This document shows positions 3,064 through 26,787 of a stretch of 64,000 nt of DNA, piece after piece. The notes beneath the pieces are model-generated. The model saw nothing but the letters and a program-made list of their open reading frames with translations, ran no database searches and was not told the origin of the DNA. The stretch spans positions 1-64,000 of the forward strand of contig JAPLVC010000001.1 in the NCBI GenBank assembly GCA_026397315.1, written 5' to 3'. Both the position numbers and the translations under genes were made by a program. Positions within the stretch are counted from its first letter, which is position 1. Each line of letters opens with the position of its first letter. This DNA comes from Candidatus Aenigmatarchaeota archaeon (GTDB lineage Archaea > Aenigmatarchaeota > Aenigmatarchaeia > QMZP01 > QMZT01).

Positions 3064-4068
3064 CTGCGTTTGAGCGAGCGGGAGTCGATGAGTGACCATC
3101 GGCTTCACCTTGATCTTCTTCGTCTTTATCAGCTTTATCGCTTCTGTCAGGTCGCAGCGCGCCGCTGCGTATGTAGTGACGATGCTCGCCGACTTGAACC
3201 AGATGTCGTTGAACGGCAGCGGCACATCGGCTCCGGGGTCTGTGGGCGCGAAGAATAGAATCGTTCCTCCCGCATCGAGACAAGAGAACGCCTGCTTTAT
3301 CGCAGGCATGGCACCTGTCGAAACTATGACTCTGTCCGCGAGCTTGCCTGCAAGCTCCTTTATCTTGGATGGGACGTCTTCGCGCGCGTCTATGACGTAA
3401 TCCGCGCCCATCTTCTTGGCCATTTTCAGGCGGTATTCGCTCACATCGGTCGCGACGACTGTTGCGCCTTTCGCCTTCGCCAGCTGTATGTGGAGCAGGC
3501 CGGTCATGCCCGAGCCGAGGACCGCGACGACGTGGCCTTTACGCACGTTCGCGACGCGCTGGCCGCGGACAACGCAAGCGACGGGCTCGACGAACGTTCC
3601 TTCGTCGAAAGTCATTCCCTTGGGTAGTCGGAGCGTGCCTTTCTTCACGTTTATTTCGGGGACGCGTATGTACTGGGAGAAGCCGCCTGGATGGAAGTTG
3701 GTCGTCTTTAACGTGTGGCACGCGGTCTCGTTGCCGTCCCTGCAGTATGAGCAGCTGTCGCAGGGCACGTGATGAGTGACGAATATGCGGTCGCCTTTCT
3801 TGAAGCTTTTGACCTTTTTGCCTGTCTTGTGCACGACACCAGCAACCTCATGGCCGAGGACTAGCGGCGCCTTCTTTATGCGGTACCATTCCATGATGTC
3901 TGAGCCGCAGATGCCGGAAGACATGACTTTCAGAAGTATTTCCTTGTCGCCTATGTCCGGCACCGGCATTTCCTGAAGACGGATGTCATGGTTGTTGTAA
4001 TACATGGCGACTTTCATAGTATCACGTTTTCGGTTTTCTTTCGGCTTTCGATTTTCAACAGCTTTCAC
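2998..4068 (-). CDS. Zn-dependent medium-chain dehydrogenase (polyol/threonine dehydrogenase-like); true start probably 4017 (MKVAMYY)
   Basis: GICGSD, GHE, CxxCxxC...C structural Zn site, GSGMTG Rossmann motif. Confidence 0.9.
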   Translation of the reverse strand: MKAVENRKPKENRKRDTMKVAMYYNNHDIRLQEMPVPDIGDKEILLKVMSSGICGSDIMEWYRIKKAPLVLGHEVAGVVHKTGKKVKSFKKGDRIFVTHHVPCDSCSYCRDGNETACHTLKTTNFHPGGFSQYIRVPEINVKKGTLRLPKGMTFDEGTFVEPVACVVRGQRVANVRKGHVVAVLGSGMTGLLHIQLAKAKGATVVATDVSEYRLKMAKKMGADYVIDAREDVPSKIKELAGKLADRVIVSTGAMPAIKQAFSCLDAGGTILFFAPTDPGADVPLPFNDIWFKSASIVTTYAAARCDLTEAIKLIKTKKIKVKPMVTHRLPLAQTQKGFELVMSGAASVKVIIEPHK

Positions 4069-21076: not shown

Positions 21077-22270
21077 TCATTTGGATTGCCTGAGAACAAA
21101 AGGTATGAGGTCGTTGCCCTTTATCATGAAGCCGCACTCGCACGACTTTTCGTCGAACTTCCTGGCGATGCCGGGTTTTATGCCGTCACCTGCGACGAGA
21201 ACCGGGACCGGGTCACCGGTGTGCCTGTAAAGCTTGTAAGCCGGGTCGCTCGCCGTCCGGTGGTCGGACGTTATGACAATCGCAGTGTTTTTCATGTCCA
21301 CCGCTTTCATCAGCCCGCCAAGCTGCCCGTCTATTTTCTCTATGAATCCCGTCTTTTCGTCACGCTTCGCGTCGTGGGAAAGTATGTCGGTGCCGTTGAT
21401 GTGCAAAAGGACGAAATCATACGCTTTCATCGCTTCCGCGGCTTTTTCGAACTTGCCTTTCAGGTTCGTGTCGGGATAGCCTGTCGCTCCGGGGACTGTG
21501 ATGATGTCCATGCCCAGGAACGCAGCGACGCCTTTGATTATGGGGATGCCGCCTATGCAGCAGGAGCGCATGCCATACTTTTTTTTGAATGGCTCAACTG
21601 CCGTCTTCCTCGAGAAGCCGCGCATCAGGATAACGTTGGCCGGGAATTTCCTCTCTTTGTTTACGCTTTCCGTGGAAAGCATTTTGCCTGTCTTGAATAC
21701 GAATTTGTTCAATACGCTGGACGTGAATTTCGCTTCCGCGTTTTTCGCCTTGAACTGGAGCACGGGCACGCCTTCCTCTTCCGGGTCGTTGGATTCGACG
21801 TTTTCGGAAAGCTTGACATTCTCATCAAGCGGCCTCATGACTATTACCACCCTGTGACCAGCGGACTTTTTCAGGAAGAAATGGACGCCGTCTATCTCGA
21901 TGCCGTCGAGCCTTTCAGTGAGCTCTTCGAGCCCGGTTTCGTCGCGTCCCGCGCGGCGGTCGAGGATGTTGCCGTTAGCCCCGAGCGTCGCAAAGTTGCC
22001 GCGGATGCAGACATCGCTTTCTCGTATGTCTTCCATGCCGAGGCCCAGCGCCTCGAGGTAGCCGCGGCCCGGGTATGTTTCTTTGGAGTAGAAACCCAGA
22101 AGGCTGAGATACCCGAAATCCGACTGCGGCGTTCCTTTATAGCATATGTCGAGAAGCCCGCACGCCCCTTTCGCTGCCAGCGCCGACATGTTGGGTTTCC
22201 TGGCAATTTCATAGGGAGTCTTCTTGCCTACGTCGCCACCGCCGTCGAGCACCAGCATCAGAATTTTCAT
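21077..22270 (-). CDS. apgM: 2,3-bisphosphoglycerate-independent phosphoglycerate mutase
   Basis: LDGGGD, QSD, GRGYLEALG, DRRAGR, D..SHD, TSDH, HTGDPVP. Confidence 0.9.
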   Translation of the reverse strand: MKILMLVLDGGGDVGKKTPYEIARKPNMSALAAKGACGLLDICYKGTPQSDFGYLSLLGFYSKETYPGRGYLEALGLGMEDIRESDVCIRGNFATLGANGNILDRRAGRDETGLEELTERLDGIEIDGVHFFLKKSAGHRVVIVMRPLDENVKLSENVESNDPEEEGVPVLQFKAKNAEAKFTSSVLNKFVFKTGKMLSTESVNKERKFPANVILMRGFSRKTAVEPFKKKYGMRSCCIGGIPIIKGVAAFLGMDIITVPGATGYPDTNLKGKFEKAAEAMKAYDFVLLHINGTDILSHDAKRDEKTGFIEKIDGQLGGLMKAVDMKNTAIVITSDHRTASDPAYKLYRHTGDPVPVLVAGDGIKPGIARKFDEKSCECGFMIKGNDLIPFVLRQSK

Positions 22271-22440
22271 GGTTTTTTCACCATTAATTCTTATACAAAA
22301 CTACTATAAAAGCCGTTCCCAGCGTAGCCCACCCCCCATTCCGGAACATTAACCGTTTGTTATGCCGGGAAAAAATTCTCTAAAAAATTTATACTAATAT
22401 ACTATTACAGAAAAGAGGAATGAAAGAAGAGGAAAGCTGC

Positions 22441-23979
22441 TCATCTCTCGAGGATGAAATACCTGTCTTCCTCGGCGTGCGGGACTTCGTCCAGCAGCAT
22501 GCCGCGCTCTTTCCCGACGCCTATCACGTCGAGCTTGCGGACATTCTCTATGGCACGGCTGAGCTTATTGTTTTTCTCGGCGTATATCTCGAAAAGCACT
22601 TCGCCTTTCCTGACCTTGTCGCCGAGCTTTTTCTTGAAATATATTCCAGCCCCCTTGTCCCTTGGGGCGCCGGCGTCCCTTGCGATTATGTCTATACCCT
22701 TATTGCTTATCCACAGCACCTTGCCTGACTTGCTGGATTTGAACTCGGCAACATATTTGCCGGAATGAAGGTCCTCGGGCTTTATGTCCGGGTTGCCTCC
22801 CTGCGCCTCGATTATTTCCCTGAGTTTCTTGTATGCCTTACCGGATTTCAGGATTTCAAGTGCGGCCTGCTTGCCGTCTTTCGCCCCTGCGAATCCGAGC
22901 AGCACGCCCGCGAGCGTCGTGGCCTTGTCGACCAGGTCGGGCGGGCCGTGGCCGTGCATGACGGTGCTGAGAGCCTCTCTCGCTTCCATCATCGGCCCGA
23001 CGGCGTGGCCGATCGGTTGGTCGGCGAAAGTCGAGATGCAATCTACCTTTATGCCTAATTTTTTTCCCAGCTGTATGAATTCGCATGCAAGATTTTCGAA
23101 TTCTTCCTTGGTTCTGATTTTCGTTTCCCTCCCGGTCGGAATATCGATGACAAGATACTTCGCGTTGACGCATTTCTTCTTGGACATGACGGACGGCAGC
23201 AAGAACGGGTCTATCGAAAGCGGGTATTCTATCTTTATGAAAATATCATCCGCCGGCGCTAAATCGACCGCTCCGCCCCATACCATGCAGGCATTGGTCT
23301 TGTTGACCACCCTGCGCACTTCATCCAGCGAGAGATTGACAGGCATGATGCATTCGACCCTGTCCGCGCTGCCCGCAGGCGACGTGATGGCTCGCGAAGA
23401 AGTCTTGGGAATTGTGAGGCCCGCTGCCGCGACAATCGGGACGACCACGATGGTCGTCTTGTCCCCGGGACAGCCGCCGATGGAGTGCTTGTCGTAAACC
23501 GCCTTGGTCCTGAGGTTGAGCGAGCGGCCCGTCTTGGTCATGGATTCCGAGAGGCTGGCGATCTCGCCCATGGTCATGCCCTTGTTGTAAAGCGACGTGA
23601 CGAACGCCGTCAGCTCTATGTCGGAAAGCCTGTGGTGCACGGTATCGACTATTATGGCATGTATTTCCTTGGGTGTGAGCGTGTGGCCGAGAAGTTTTCT
23701 TTTTATGAACGCCATCGACTTGGGCGGCGGCGCGGTCTGGACGTGCACTTTCTCGTCCGGCTTGACGTCGAGATGCTCCTGTATCTCCTCGTAAAGGCCT
23801 ATCTCGCCCTCGCGCACTATCTTCTTCGCGATGTTCACTATGGCGACTACCTTGTCCTTGCCAAAAGAAAGCTCCACCCTGTCGAGCGGCTTTATGCCCA
23901 GCTCGGCCGCGTCCTCGATGTTGAAAATGGCGACCGGCTTATCAGCTTCAAGCTGCAGGAACTTCGCGCGCAAAAACAT
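22441..23979 (-). CDS. deoA: AMP phosphorylase
   Basis: N-terminal extra domain, DKHSIGG, KTSSRAITSPAG, WGGAVDLAPADD. Confidence 0.92.
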   Translation of the reverse strand: MFLRAKFLQLEADKPVAIFNIEDAAELGIKPLDRVELSFGKDKVVAIVNIAKKIVREGEIGLYEEIQEHLDVKPDEKVHVQTAPPPKSMAFIKRKLLGHTLTPKEIHAIIVDTVHHRLSDIELTAFVTSLYNKGMTMGEIASLSESMTKTGRSLNLRTKAVYDKHSIGGCPGDKTTIVVVPIVAAAGLTIPKTSSRAITSPAGSADRVECIMPVNLSLDEVRRVVNKTNACMVWGGAVDLAPADDIFIKIEYPLSIDPFLLPSVMSKKKCVNAKYLVIDIPTGRETKIRTKEEFENLACEFIQLGKKLGIKVDCISTFADQPIGHAVGPMMEAREALSTVMHGHGPPDLVDKATTLAGVLLGFAGAKDGKQAALEILKSGKAYKKLREIIEAQGGNPDIKPEDLHSGKYVAEFKSSKSGKVLWISNKGIDIIARDAGAPRDKGAGIYFKKKLGDKVRKGEVLFEIYAEKNNKLSRAIENVRKLDVIGVGKERGMLLDEVPHAEEDRYFILER

Positions 23980-24021
23980 ATTGCAAACCCCAACATCAAC
24001 CCAATTTCAAATATAGTATTA

Positions 24022-25302
24022 TTATCTTTTGACGCCCCACTTTTTTATTGCTATTGCCAGTTCCTCGTTTTTCAGGGAGTATTCATCCAGCGAGACGCCT
24101 TTCATGTAAGCCTCGAGGGCCTGGCGCATCGCTTTCGCTCCAGCCTCGCTGCCCCACGGGTGGCCGTGCACGCCTCCGCCGGCCTGGATTATGACATTGT
24201 TGCCCATTATCTTCAGCAGTTTGGGCAGGCTGCCCGGGTAAAGGCCGCCCGATGCGACGGCGAAGACCGGCTTGACGTTGTACCAGAACTGCTCCAGCGA
24301 ATGGCCACTTCTCAGCTCAGTGACGAACTTGCTCTCAATCTCGTCCTCTATCTCGCTCGTCTCGTCACCGGACATTTTTCCGACGTTCGCGGTCCCGACG
24401 TGTATCTGGTCGACGCCGATCAGCCTCGCCAGTTTCGCTATGACCAGCATCGAAATGCCGTGCTTATTGCTCTTGGTGAAGGCCGCATGCCCTGCGCGGT
24501 GCGCGTGCAGTATCAGGTTCATCTCGTTATTGTAATTGCGCACAGTTTGCAAGCCCGACCAGCCTATCGACACGATATCGACCATCGCGTACTCGCAGCC
24601 GTGGTCCTTGACAAACTTCATCCTGCGCAGCATTTCGCTCGTCTCGGCCGTGATGTTGGGCATGTAGAATTTTCCTTCGCCCGTTTCTTCCTCGGCGCGG
24701 TCGCGCATCTTGAGCGTTTCGACGACGCGCTTTTCGAAGCGGTTGAAGCCCATGCTCGTGAGGTTCTCGTCGTCCTTCACTATGTCCAGGCCGCCGACCC
24801 ATGATTCGAAGGCGGATTTCGCATGCTCGCTTTCGCTGAGGCCGAGCTTCGGCTTCACTATCGTCCCTAGCAACGGACGTCTTTTGACGCGCAACTTCTG
24901 GCGTATGCCGGGAATGCCGAACTTCGGCCCTGAGAAGGACTTTATGTATCTTTCCGGCAGGCGGATGTCGAGAAGACGCAGGTTCTCTAATGTCTTCATG
25001 CCGAAAACGTTTCCGGCGATAGAGCTCATGAGCTGCGGCACGTTGCCCGGCTCGAACAGAGCTAGCGGATAAGAGATGCGGGCTATCTTTTCCTTCTTGT
25101 TGATAGAAAATACGGTCGGCCTGAGGTCGCGCCATATGCGCGCCTTCATCGTGCTCACTTCTGTCCACGTGCCTATGGAGCTCTCGCCTGTCAGATCGTT
25201 GCACGCCTTCTCGAATGACGTCTTGTTCGGCTCGAGATAGAATTCGGCGATAACGTCGTCCCTTGAAGGGACGTGATCAAGATCGATATACTCGTTTCTC
25301 AT
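24022..25302 (-). CDS. rbcL: RuBisCO large subunit, form III type
   Basis: ESSIGTW, TIVKPKLGL, KDDE, HAHRAGH, GKM loop 6, SGG, QAGGGVHGHP. Confidence 0.93.
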   Translation of the reverse strand: MRNEYIDLDHVPSRDDVIAEFYLEPNKTSFEKACNDLTGESSIGTWTEVSTMKARIWRDLRPTVFSINKKEKIARISYPLALFEPGNVPQLMSSIAGNVFGMKTLENLRLLDIRLPERYIKSFSGPKFGIPGIRQKLRVKRRPLLGTIVKPKLGLSESEHAKSAFESWVGGLDIVKDDENLTSMGFNRFEKRVVETLKMRDRAEEETGEGKFYMPNITAETSEMLRRMKFVKDHGCEYAMVDIVSIGWSGLQTVRNYNNEMNLILHAHRAGHAAFTKSNKHGISMLVIAKLARLIGVDQIHVGTANVGKMSGDETSEIEDEIESKFVTELRSGHSLEQFWYNVKPVFAVASGGLYPGSLPKLLKIMGNNVIIQAGGGVHGHPWGSEAGAKAMRQALEAYMKGVSLDEYSLKNEELAIAIKKWGVKR

Positions 25303-25385
25303 GGCAACGCACCCGCATGACCCGCAATATATATAATTTGAATTCCAGCATAAAAGTATTTTAGCTTCAAAGACAAGCTAGAAGC

Positions 25386-25463
25386 ATGGCATCAAAAATA
25401 AGCGTTAGCAGGAAAGGCAAAATTAAAACGACCAAAAAAGCTAGCCAACATGGTACTATATAA
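25386..25463 (+). CDS. Candidate 25-aa precursor peptide MASKISVSRKGKIKTTKKASQHGTI (not in ORF track)
   Basis: ATG..TAA ORF with an AT-rich TATA-like segment about 25-30 nt upstream and a T-rich terminator downstream. Convergent with the RRE-like/M50 protease. Confidence 0.55.
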   Translation: MASKISVSRKGKIKTTKKASQHGTI

Positions 25464-25502
25464 TTTTTTGTAAGCGTTTTTTATTTTTCTTTCTGAGTTG
25501 TT

Positions 25503-26723
25503 TTAGCTTCTGCTATGCTTTGGCTTTCTTATTTTTCTTCTGAAATGGCCCCTCATGACAGCGTAGCCGAGCAGCCCGTATTCAGCGCCGAAGATGAGGA
25601 GAAAAGCCATGCTGTCAAGAATCTTCTGCGGATCGGAAGACACGAACAGGTTCGTCATGGAAGTCGTGAAGACTTGGTAGATGATGGGTATGTCAAAAAC
25701 AAGGAAGCTCACGACGGCTATCGACGTCCCCGCGAGGAAGAAAACGGAGAATATTTCGGTTACAGTGTACTCCCTCCCGCCGGCCCGGGGTCTGCCGCCC
25801 TTGCCAAGCATTCCCATGAACTCCGCCCTGATGAACTTAAGCGACTTTTCGTACAGGCCTTCAGTCTTCAGGAGCGTCTCGAAGATGAGATAGACATCCG
25901 TCTTCATGAAAAACATGAACTGCCAGACTAGCCCGAGTATTTCCATCATGACAAGATAACGCAGCACGAGATAGACGTGATAAGGCAGGGGCAGCGCGCC
26001 CGTGTCGGAAAGAAACATGGCGAAAATGAAGAGCGAGATGAAAAGGACGTCGCTCGCCATGCCGGCGAAATATATCCTGAGCCTCTTTATTCTCGGCAGC
26101 CTCCACACGTTAGTGACGTCGGTGACGGCGACCAGGTAATACAGCCTGTAGTCTATGCCGAAATCCGCCTTTATCCCGCAGGATATCGCGGCTAGGAAAT
26201 GGGAGAACTCGTGCCTCGTGACCATGATTATGCTGAGCAGGAAAGAAACCGCCGCTATGAACGTGTAGCTTTGACTGAAAAAGAAATCCTCGTATCTCGG
26301 CACGTAGTCGGGGTTTGCGATGACGAGGAAGAGGGCGAAAGTGACGAACATGACATAAGCGAAGTAGGCAGGCTTGGAGAAAATCCAGGACACGTGCCCT
26401 GGCTTCAGCCACGGGAAAAGATAATGCGCCTTCTTCCTCTTCTTCAGCTTCCTGCCGCCTATGCTCCTGACGAAGCCGTCCTGGGCGAGCTCGCGGACGA
26501 AGCCTTTAACATCGAAATCTTTGCCGTATTTTTTACGGGCTTCCTTCCCGGCCTGCTCCACGGTCCTGCCGGACTTGAGGAGCCGGATTATATCGAGGCC
26601 CGCGTCAGGTATGCCGATATAGTCCTCCGTCTCCTGCCTTCCTATTATGTATTCATTGCCTTCTTTCCTGGAGGAAATCCTGAAGAAATGAATCTCGTCC
26701 GTGTCGCTTATCCTCAGCACCAT
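25503..26723 (-). CDS. PqqD/RRE-like N-terminal domain fused to an M50-type intramembrane Zn metalloprotease
   Basis: N-terminal 3-strand plus 3-helix pattern (YIIGR..YIGIP..IIRLLKSG..DVKGFVRELAQDGFV), HEFSH, IYFAGMASD, QFMFFMKTDVY. Confidence 0.8.
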   Translation of the reverse strand: MVLRISDTDEIHFFRISSRKEGNEYIIGRQETEDYIGIPDAGLDIIRLLKSGRTVEQAGKEARKKYGKDFDVKGFVRELAQDGFVRSIGGRKLKKRKKAHYLFPWLKPGHVSWIFSKPAYFAYVMFVTFALFLVIANPDYVPRYEDFFFSQSYTFIAAVSFLLSIIMVTRHEFSHFLAAISCGIKADFGIDYRLYYLVAVTDVTNVWRLPRIKRLRIYFAGMASDVLFISLFIFAMFLSDTGALPLPYHVYLVLRYLVMMEILGLVWQFMFFMKTDVYLIFETLLKTEGLYEKSLKFIRAEFMGMLGKGGRPRAGGREYTVTEIFSVFFLAGTSIAVVSFLVFDIPIIYQVFTTSMTNLFVSSDPQKILDSMAFLLIFGAEYGLLGYAVMRGHFRRKIRKPKHSRS

Positions 26724-26787
26724 GTTAATACTTTCGGCGAGGATATTGAAAAATCAGTAATTCATATCCTGCTGGTATTTTTATTTT

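Follow-up and report, generated by a model that had tools for sequence, protein, structure and literature searches.

A candidate minimal pair of leader peptide and RRE-fused intramembrane protease in an Aenigmatarchaeota genome

The protease MpaP/DapP of the daptide pathways carries a recognition element (RRE) for peptides that are made by the ribosome and modified after translation (RiPPs), which is fused N-terminally to an intramembrane site-2 protease and for which RRE-dependent removal of the leader has been proposed; the fused RRE of MpaP has also been the handle used for daptide discovery (bioRxiv 10.1101/2023.03.08.531785). EpeP of the epipeptides and TglG/TmoG of the pearlins are membrane M50 proteases cutting small ribosomal peptides, and EpeP is thought both to cleave and to export its product (PMC10885120). 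We have analyzed a stretch of 64,000 nucleotides (nt), the window, from a contig of a tiny, symbiont-type archaeon of Candidatus Aenigmatarchaeota. Here the gene of an RRE-M50 fusion protease of 406 amino acids (aa) converges with an open reading frame (ORF) of 25 codons. We consider it fairly probable that both genes together form a horizontally acquired cassette and that the peptide is the protease's own substrate, which would make them a minimal leader-peptide/protease pair. What the analysis shows are the ORF with its pattern of conservation, the folds of the two domains, the make-up of the cassette and the presence of leader-type peptide genes beside homologous proteases; the expression, the binding, the cut site, the export and the biological role of the peptide are what we infer. 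The elements in question are the following:

25386..25463, + strand: candidate substrate or precursor peptide, 25 aa, basic; residues 1-20 conserved and residues 21-25 variable in comparison with the relative L008; residues 2-21 form the predicted interface.
25503..26723, - strand: RRE-M50 fusion protease, 406 aa, recognized from Pfam matches, homologs, AlphaFold model and fold matches.
25340..26787, no strand assigned: acquired two-gene unit, approximate limits, about 1.45 kb, with the beta-propeller gene on one side and the RuBisCO core promoter on the other.

As in MpaP/DapP, an N-terminal RRE and an M50 membrane protease are found here in one protein beside a short putative precursor ORF. 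Daptide leaders, however, show the motif ELExMEAP and the precursors an invariant C-terminal Thr, whereas the leader family described below has the pattern K-I-x-V-R-K...T-T and the window peptide ends with Ile. Moreover, the window protein gave no match to a daptide model of NCBIfam at E ≤ 1, and enzymes of the MpaB/C/D/M type are absent, the neighbours being a beta-propeller protein and RuBisCO. We conclude that the window system would work like daptide and EpeP-type systems but, because of the missing model match, the different leader, the absence of a C-terminal Thr and the absence of Mpa enzymes, is not a daptide system. The EpeP and TglG/TmoG pathways differ from it in that they include modifying enzymes, and TglG/TmoG remove C-terminal residues. 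Peptidase-containing ABC transporters, in which one membrane protein recognizes and removes the conserved double-glycine leader of diverse small peptides, offer a functional analogy only, since these consist of an unrelated cysteine protease and an ABC pump and there is no ATPase in the window unit.

A preliminary description, made from the sequence alone, had read the 406-aa protein as a PqqD/RRE-like N-terminus fused to an M50-type protease with an HEFSH motif and with QFxFFxKTD in place of NxxPxxxxDG. Both halves of this assignment are borne out, and the relevant parts of the protein are:

26439..26723, - strand: N-terminal PqqD/RRE-like domain, residues 1-95, with four strands, three helices and one strand, from the model and the fold search.
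26199..26213, - strand: HEFSH zinc-binding and catalytic motif, residues 171-175, with H171, E172 and H175 invariant.
26112..26165, - strand: beta-hairpin after the HExxH helix, residues 187-204, from the models; the predicted partner of its strand 196-204 is the peptide at residues 12-15.
25896..25925, - strand: WQFMFFMKTD, residues 267-276; W267, Q268, T275 and D276 conserved or invariant, D276 being the presumed third zinc ligand.

Pfam matches were obtained for PqqD (PF05402; residues 25-85, 17.6 bits, E 0.0048) and for Peptidase_M50 (PF02163; 24.2 bits, E 2.4e-5), both below the curated cut-offs of 23.4 and 27.2 bits, respectively. Among 47 homologs, 12 matched PqqD at E ≤ 0.01, and a scan of the window protein against NCBIfam at E ≤ 1 yielded only a marginal RseP match. 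In the AlphaFold model of the protease (predicted local distance difference test, pLDDT, 93.3; predicted template modeling score, pTM, 0.88) the RRE consists of strands 16-21, 24-29 and 34-39 and helices 40-50, 55-66 and 72-81, which is a winged-helix arrangement. Foldseek placed TbiB1 with bound leader (PDB 5v1u/5v1v), lasso B1 (6jx3) and PqqD (5sxy) on top, followed by ThcOx and McbB; the first three align to residues ~1-90 with target TM-scores of 0.66-0.74 and, for the best matches, a root mean square deviation of 2.3-3.4 Å at an identity of only 16-23%. The N-terminal domain is therefore PqqD-like in its fold, with the difference that TbiB1, lasso B1 and PqqD stand alone and serve a separate enzyme, whereas the window RRE is fused to the protease.

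The membrane part gave a fold match to the site-2 protease of M. jannaschii (3b4r). With this protein, RseP and SpoIVFB it has in common the HExxH motif and the distal Asp in membrane helices (here H171, E172, H175 and D276) and the hairpin after the HExxH helix, which in RseP can pair with an extended substrate. It differs from these site-2 proteases in having WQFxFFM(R/K)TD where the canonical NxxPxxxxDG would be expected and an RRE instead of a PDZ or CBS domain; furthermore, the presumed substrate in the window is a soluble 25-mer and not a transmembrane segment. An exhaustive search retrieved 1149 cluster representatives at E ≤ 0.001, 278 of them at E ≤ 1e-30, and since the alignments are mostly full-length the RRE-M50 fusion constitutes an established and large family. 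The residues H171, E172, H175, R193, R214, G221 and D276 are invariant in 47 aligned members. As a separate observation, the protease evolves much faster than its neighbours: compared with its counterpart in the relative L008 (L008:4001-5221) the ratio of nonsynonymous to synonymous substitution rates (dN/dS) is ~0.28, while the neighbouring RuBisCO and propeller genes have values of ~0.05-0.10. Such a rate is in keeping with an accessory gene that was acquired recently.

The small ORF, MASKISVSRKGKIKTTKKASQHGTI, is indeed found at 25386..25463 (+) between the form III RuBisCO gene and the convergent protease gene, 39 nt from the protease stop codon. The encoded peptide contains seven K/R and no acidic residue, starts with MASK, has the motif KISV from residue 4 onwards and later the sequence KTTKKA. 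Two flanking elements have to be considered:

25350..25363, + strand: TATA-like AT-rich segment ATAAAAGTATTTTA, read from the sequence, with the same letters in L008; putative promoter.
25464..25492, + strand: oligo-T tracts T6, T6, T5 and T3, archaeal terminator-like, directly after the ORF stop; T6/T6/T5 span 25464..25488.

Both had been noted before, the first as lying about 25-30 nt upstream, and more precisely the TATTTTA at 25357..25363 is centred 26 nt 5′ of the ATG, a spacing that would imply a leaderless or near-leaderless transcript. The RuBisCO gene possesses its own TATATATA box ~30 nt before its start on the opposite strand, so that together with TATTTTA on the + strand there are two diverging promoter-like elements in the gap. 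A hairpin-type terminator was not found in the gap, and an Rfam search of the gap gave no match beyond noise.

The only close relative is the Aenigmatarchaeota metagenome-assembled genome (MAG) L008, which is syntenic and encodes a protease 85% identical to that of the window. At the same place it has the ORF MASKISVSRKGKVKTTKKASTHIFK with the same start, stop and length. In the first 20 codons we find three synonymous changes and one conservative exchange of I to V (dS 0.30, dN 0.021, dN/dS 0.07), the dS being comparable to that of the flanking genes (0.29-0.70), whereas an overlapping antisense ORF of 19 aa shows mostly amino-acid changes. If the ORF were neutral, with ~20% of the changes synonymous, at least three synonymous changes out of four would be expected with a binomial probability of ~0.03 by our own calculation; as only four events enter, this coding signal is modest. 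The last five codons are wholly rewritten in L008 without a shift of the stop codon. A conserved head with a rewritten tail is the pattern of conserved leader and variable core that is usual for precursor peptides, and the small ORF thus combines a short length and a distance of at most ~300 nt from the protease with an N-terminal motif, a conserved putative leader and a variable tail.

The distribution of the two genes is in line with this. Peptide and protease co-occur in the same two of 61 relatives and neither was found in the other 59; in the phylum as a whole the protease was found in only two of 371 genomes. In three other genomes from this genus the propeller gene has rbcL as its immediate neighbour, and in the alignment only the rbcL core promoter is shared. 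Protease and ORF are therefore a single, co-inherited unit of ~1.45 kb that was gained by one sub-lineage. The beta-propeller gene was considered as a further part of the system and rejected, because it abuts rbcL also in relatives without the cassette. The acquired unit hence comprises only protease and ORF, in agreement with the earlier statement that there is no adjacent modifying enzyme, and from its gene content "minimal, no modifying enzyme" is a fair description of it.

We then predicted the complex of the full-length protease, supplied with its alignment, and the 25-mer, using three unrelated 25-mers as controls. The score was 0.69 for the window peptide and 0.00-0.02 for the controls; the former mark was attained in 58 of 80 solved complexes as compared with 2 of 110 mismatched pairs. 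The pLDDT of the partner was 70-71 and at least 71% of the contacts were common to the runs. In the model residues 7-11 of the peptide lie along the RRE strand 35-38 and touch residues 68-82 with helix 3, the contacts on the RRE comprising residues 24, 26, 33, 35-39, 41-45 and 68-82. The same placement is known from solved RRE-leader complexes, where the leader forms a strand beside the last strand of the sheet and helix 3. In the hairpin that follows the HExxH helix, strand 200-204 is the modeled partner of peptide residues 12-15; the modeled contacts of T15 are with E172 and H175, and the protease residues 273, 275, 276 and 279 also take part in the interface. The prediction supports a binding in which the peptide would reach from the RRE strand as far as the active site.

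On the basis of this model we propose that the cytoplasmic RRE captures the conserved N-terminal part of the peptide (~K4-G11) as an added beta-strand and that K12-T15 then pair with the edge strand in the hairpin that comes behind the HExxH helix. Thereby K14-T15-T16 would be placed at the zinc site and cut there, which would free a short, variable and basic C-terminal piece of about (T)KKASQHGTI that is possibly passed across the membrane. A core of about KKASQHGTI had already been put forward in the preliminary description, and the modeled position of T15 at E172 and H175 fits it. That the released piece acts as a pheromone is a guess.

For a comparison with the homologs we fetched 117 loci of homologous proteases and later nine more. 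In Actinobacteria, Myxococcota and one cyanobacterial MAG an ORF of 24-38 aa is located 50-250 nt upstream of the protease on the same strand. Its putative leader has the consensus M-K-K-I-x-V-R-K-x-G-x-V-R-L-T-S-A-A, and the tail behind it varies and is often rich in Cys. With a hidden Markov model (HMM) of the leader, 51 ORFs reached at least 10 bits near a protease as compared with three elsewhere in the loci, and after HMM iteration 49 of the 117 loci contained a match of at least 9 bits. Conserved short ORFs are thus indeed found near homologous proteases, and the peptides of the type K-I-T-(V/I)-R-K...T that the preliminary description had placed beside this protease type in actinobacteria do exist. 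An acidic variant of the leader, MTIEIKKVEEVETTGNSNSC, occurs in 26 further Nonomuraea-type loci ~1.2 kb upstream of the protease match. Altogether a putative leader-peptide family adjoins ~75 of the 117 sampled proteases in Actinobacteria, Myxococcota, Cyanobacteria and archaea, with tails that are Cys-rich, hydrophobic or radical-SAM-associated. Neither for the window peptide nor for the peptides of eight relatives did Pfam and NCBIfam give a match beyond noise, and literature searches for the leader motif strings and for RRE together with M50 found no description of the leader family.

Low-GC relatives that are 29-37% identical to the window protein have the peptides MEKIAVRKIEDIKTT... and MEKITVRKIEDISTTGG... 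with long hydrophobic tails. Further low-GC leaders are ...KKLYIRKLEALRTTQ..., MKIEVKKIQAVATT..., which lies downstream of its protease, MEIIVRKVEDKKLA... and ...TRKLEEIKTTRRSYHIF, which is cut by the contig end. In the locus L089:942-5701 (also in L094 and L132), whose protease shows 34% identity, the leader-type peptide MEIRAKKLENIKPTAAAG... comes before the gene of a PqqD-radical-SAM-SPASM enzyme, the protease gene and that of a second radical-SAM-SPASM enzyme; this is a conventional modified-peptide (RiPP-like) cluster.

Some other loci of the homologs deserve mention in their own right. In L018-L065 (Nonomuraea, Microtetraspora and relatives, e.g., L019:2716-2826) the 20-aa sequence MTIEIKKVEEVETTGNSNSC is nearly invariant, and in the Nonomuraea-type loci the open frame of the protease is much longer (~665 aa in L019) with an N-terminal part that has no Pfam match. 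Four bacterial loci (L055:3719-7312, L075:3744-7319, L073:3660-7232 and L041:4007-7094) share a conserved set of three genes, which encode a leader-type peptide, an RRE-M50 protease and, following the protease, a protein of ~620-700 aa (~690 aa), the C-terminal half of which is made up of tetratricopeptide repeats (TPR). TPR proteins often bind peptides, and this one might serve the product as receptor or chaperone. On the contig of P0020 a response regulator and two ORFs of 41 aa come before the homolog and a 937-aa peptidase of the M1 family after it, which by analogy suggests a two-step removal of the leader as in class III lanthipeptides.

Whether the window peptide belongs to this leader family was examined separately. 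Aligned by eye and without gaps, KISVSRKGKIKTT of the window peptide and KIAVRKIEDIKTT are identical in 7 of 13 positions, and the tail KTTKKASTHIF of the L008 peptide resembles KTTRRSYHIF of L088. In a single-sequence search with the leader of L092, the locus of a 31%-identical protease, the window ORF ranked 24th among the 34,632 ORFs of the genome, and in a second one with the leader beside another closer protease 40th; over roughly ten local ORFs we estimate the local chance of such ranks at ~0.01. The genome ORFs with higher scores were not accepted as family members, as they lack a start codon near the motif and look like chance matches.

Several points weigh against the substrate reading and have to be set beside this. 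The leader HMMs (bacterial, mixed and low-GC) rank the window ORF only 190th to 758th in the genome with 2-3 bits, and with the family HMM it is not the best-scoring ORF near its own protease. Given these ranks we do not claim membership by sequence: it is unproven and the likeness is weak. The earlier view that the basic segment looks like a leader holds for the comparison by eye, but the profile searches do not recognize the window peptide. With respect to the protease gene the ORF lies downstream in convergent orientation, which is atypical for the leader family, nearly all canonical peptides being encoded upstream on the same strand. The conservation was seen in a single relative with only four substitutions. 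The 200-nt AT-rich gap contains four ORFs of 19-25 aa, so that the size of the ORF alone is unremarkable, and its lysine codons correspond, on the opposite strand, to T-tracts that possibly serve as terminator of the protease gene. Finally, the complex score was calibrated on partners of at least 30 aa, and part of the score may reflect a likeness to the solved RRE-leader complexes.

From these points it could be argued that the ORF is not a gene at all, but a chance frame in a stretch that is kept for the RuBisCO promoter, for a T-rich terminator which serves the protease gene when read on the other strand, or for an antisense RNA. The four ORFs of similar size and the failure of the family HMMs would agree with this, as would the facts that on the protease strand the first T-tracts past the stop codon lie inside the ORF and that the neighbouring promoter region is conserved just as well in L008. 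A chance frame would, however, hardly account for three synonymous changes and one conservative change in the first 20 codons while the antisense frame suffers amino-acid changes, for a start, stop and length that are kept although the last five codons diverge, or for a complex score far above that of unrelated 25-mers; in addition no Rfam family was detected beyond noise. We therefore hold a chance frame to be unlikely, and we regard the ORF as going beyond chance, not because of its size but because it is conserved in the relative, with the pattern of substitutions described, and because of its context.

A second possibility is that the peptide binds the protease without any product being released, so that it would act as regulator, decoy, occupancy switch or degraded tag; convergent transcription might then add antisense control. 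The tail behind the predicted cut is very short (~9-10 residues), there is no exporter, modifying enzyme or receptor within the unit, and the convergent arrangement makes the 3′ ends overlap. On the other hand, in the relatives the same type of leader precedes long hydrophobic, Cys-rich or radical-SAM-associated tails that resemble products, and a variable tail behind a conserved head is the usual precursor-peptide pattern. Such a purely regulatory peptide thus appears improbable to us, and cleavage of the peptide as a substrate remains the reading we prefer.

In a quick tree the window protein groups with Woesearchaeota and Nanoarchaeota members and L124 (support of 86-93 in the Shimodaira-Hasegawa-like approximate likelihood ratio test, SH-aLRT), and this DPANN-type group is sister to the low-GC clade with canonical peptides. 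In the DPANN-type loci we counted ORFs of 18-130 aa that begin with ATG and consist of K+R to at least 40%, and found seven within 300 nt of the protease and none in the other 65 kb, the seven representing about four independent lineages:

L013:5465-5536, L014:5472-5546, L091:3965-4054, L099:2894-2995 and 3071-3172, L124:3877-4197 and L101:11-157: K/R-rich ORFs of 23-106 aa.

Among them are ORFs of the MAKKRKVKAKKMKKARATGRANI type, a 33-mer present in two convergent copies and an AKKK-repeat protein of 106 aa, likewise convergent, that starts with MVSKTRKKTTKKKA (L124). The window peptide, being basic and convergent and having the form MASK...KTTKKA, fits this trend. Possibly the DPANN branch has switched to ultra-basic substrates, namely the window 25-mer, the K/R-rich ORFs of 23-33 aa in Woesearchaeota and Nanoarchaeota and the 106-aa AKKK-repeat protein, and the RRE-M50 protein would free cationic peptides by cleavage and need neither an ABC exporter nor a modifying enzyme for it; we offer this as a tentative and rather doubtful extension.

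The same basic character could also mean that the ORF encodes a genuine basic micro-protein, for instance a nucleic-acid-binding or ribosome-associated one, that has no functional relation to the protease. Its seven K/R without any acidic residue would suit such a role, and Lys-rich proteins like the 106-aa AKKK-repeat protein of L124 resemble chromatin proteins. Yet peptide and protease arrived jointly in a single unit, the model has the peptide docking specifically on the RRE and the active site, and the K/R-rich ORFs of the DPANN-clade loci occur exclusively within 300 nt of the protease. An unrelated micro-protein is in our view very unlikely.

The further gene context consists of an AMP-phosphorylase-like gene, the RuBisCO gene (24022..25302, - strand), the PQQ-type beta-propeller gene and a gene for a FlaI/T2SSE-type ATPase. 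At 21077-25302 of the window a phosphoglycerate-mutase-like gene, the AMP-phosphorylase-like gene (DeoA type) and the form III RuBisCO gene stand in a row, the order of which is kept in the relative. These three genes match the archaeal pathway of adenosine monophosphate (AMP) salvage.

While the fusion of RRE and M50 protease is already known from the daptides, the leader family beside these proteases is new in the sense that it is covered neither by Pfam and NCBIfam nor by the literature found. The present analysis thus exposes a large uncurated family of leader peptides, and the window cassette has the appearance of a reduced archaeal form of a bacterial peptide-processing system that is widespread and undescribed. 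With one recognition-and-cleavage protein and a peptide of 25 residues it is close to the smallest possible cassette and would be an easy test bed for an RRE feeding an intramembrane protease. To our knowledge hardly any ribosomal peptide systems have been described from DPANN archaea. These organisms spend their lives on other cells, and a dependence on secreted or surface factors is assumed for them. Should the doubtful extension to ultra-basic substrates turn out to be true, the cassette would provide tiny symbiotic archaea with a new and minimal route to secreted effectors acting on the membranes of the host or on nucleic acids.

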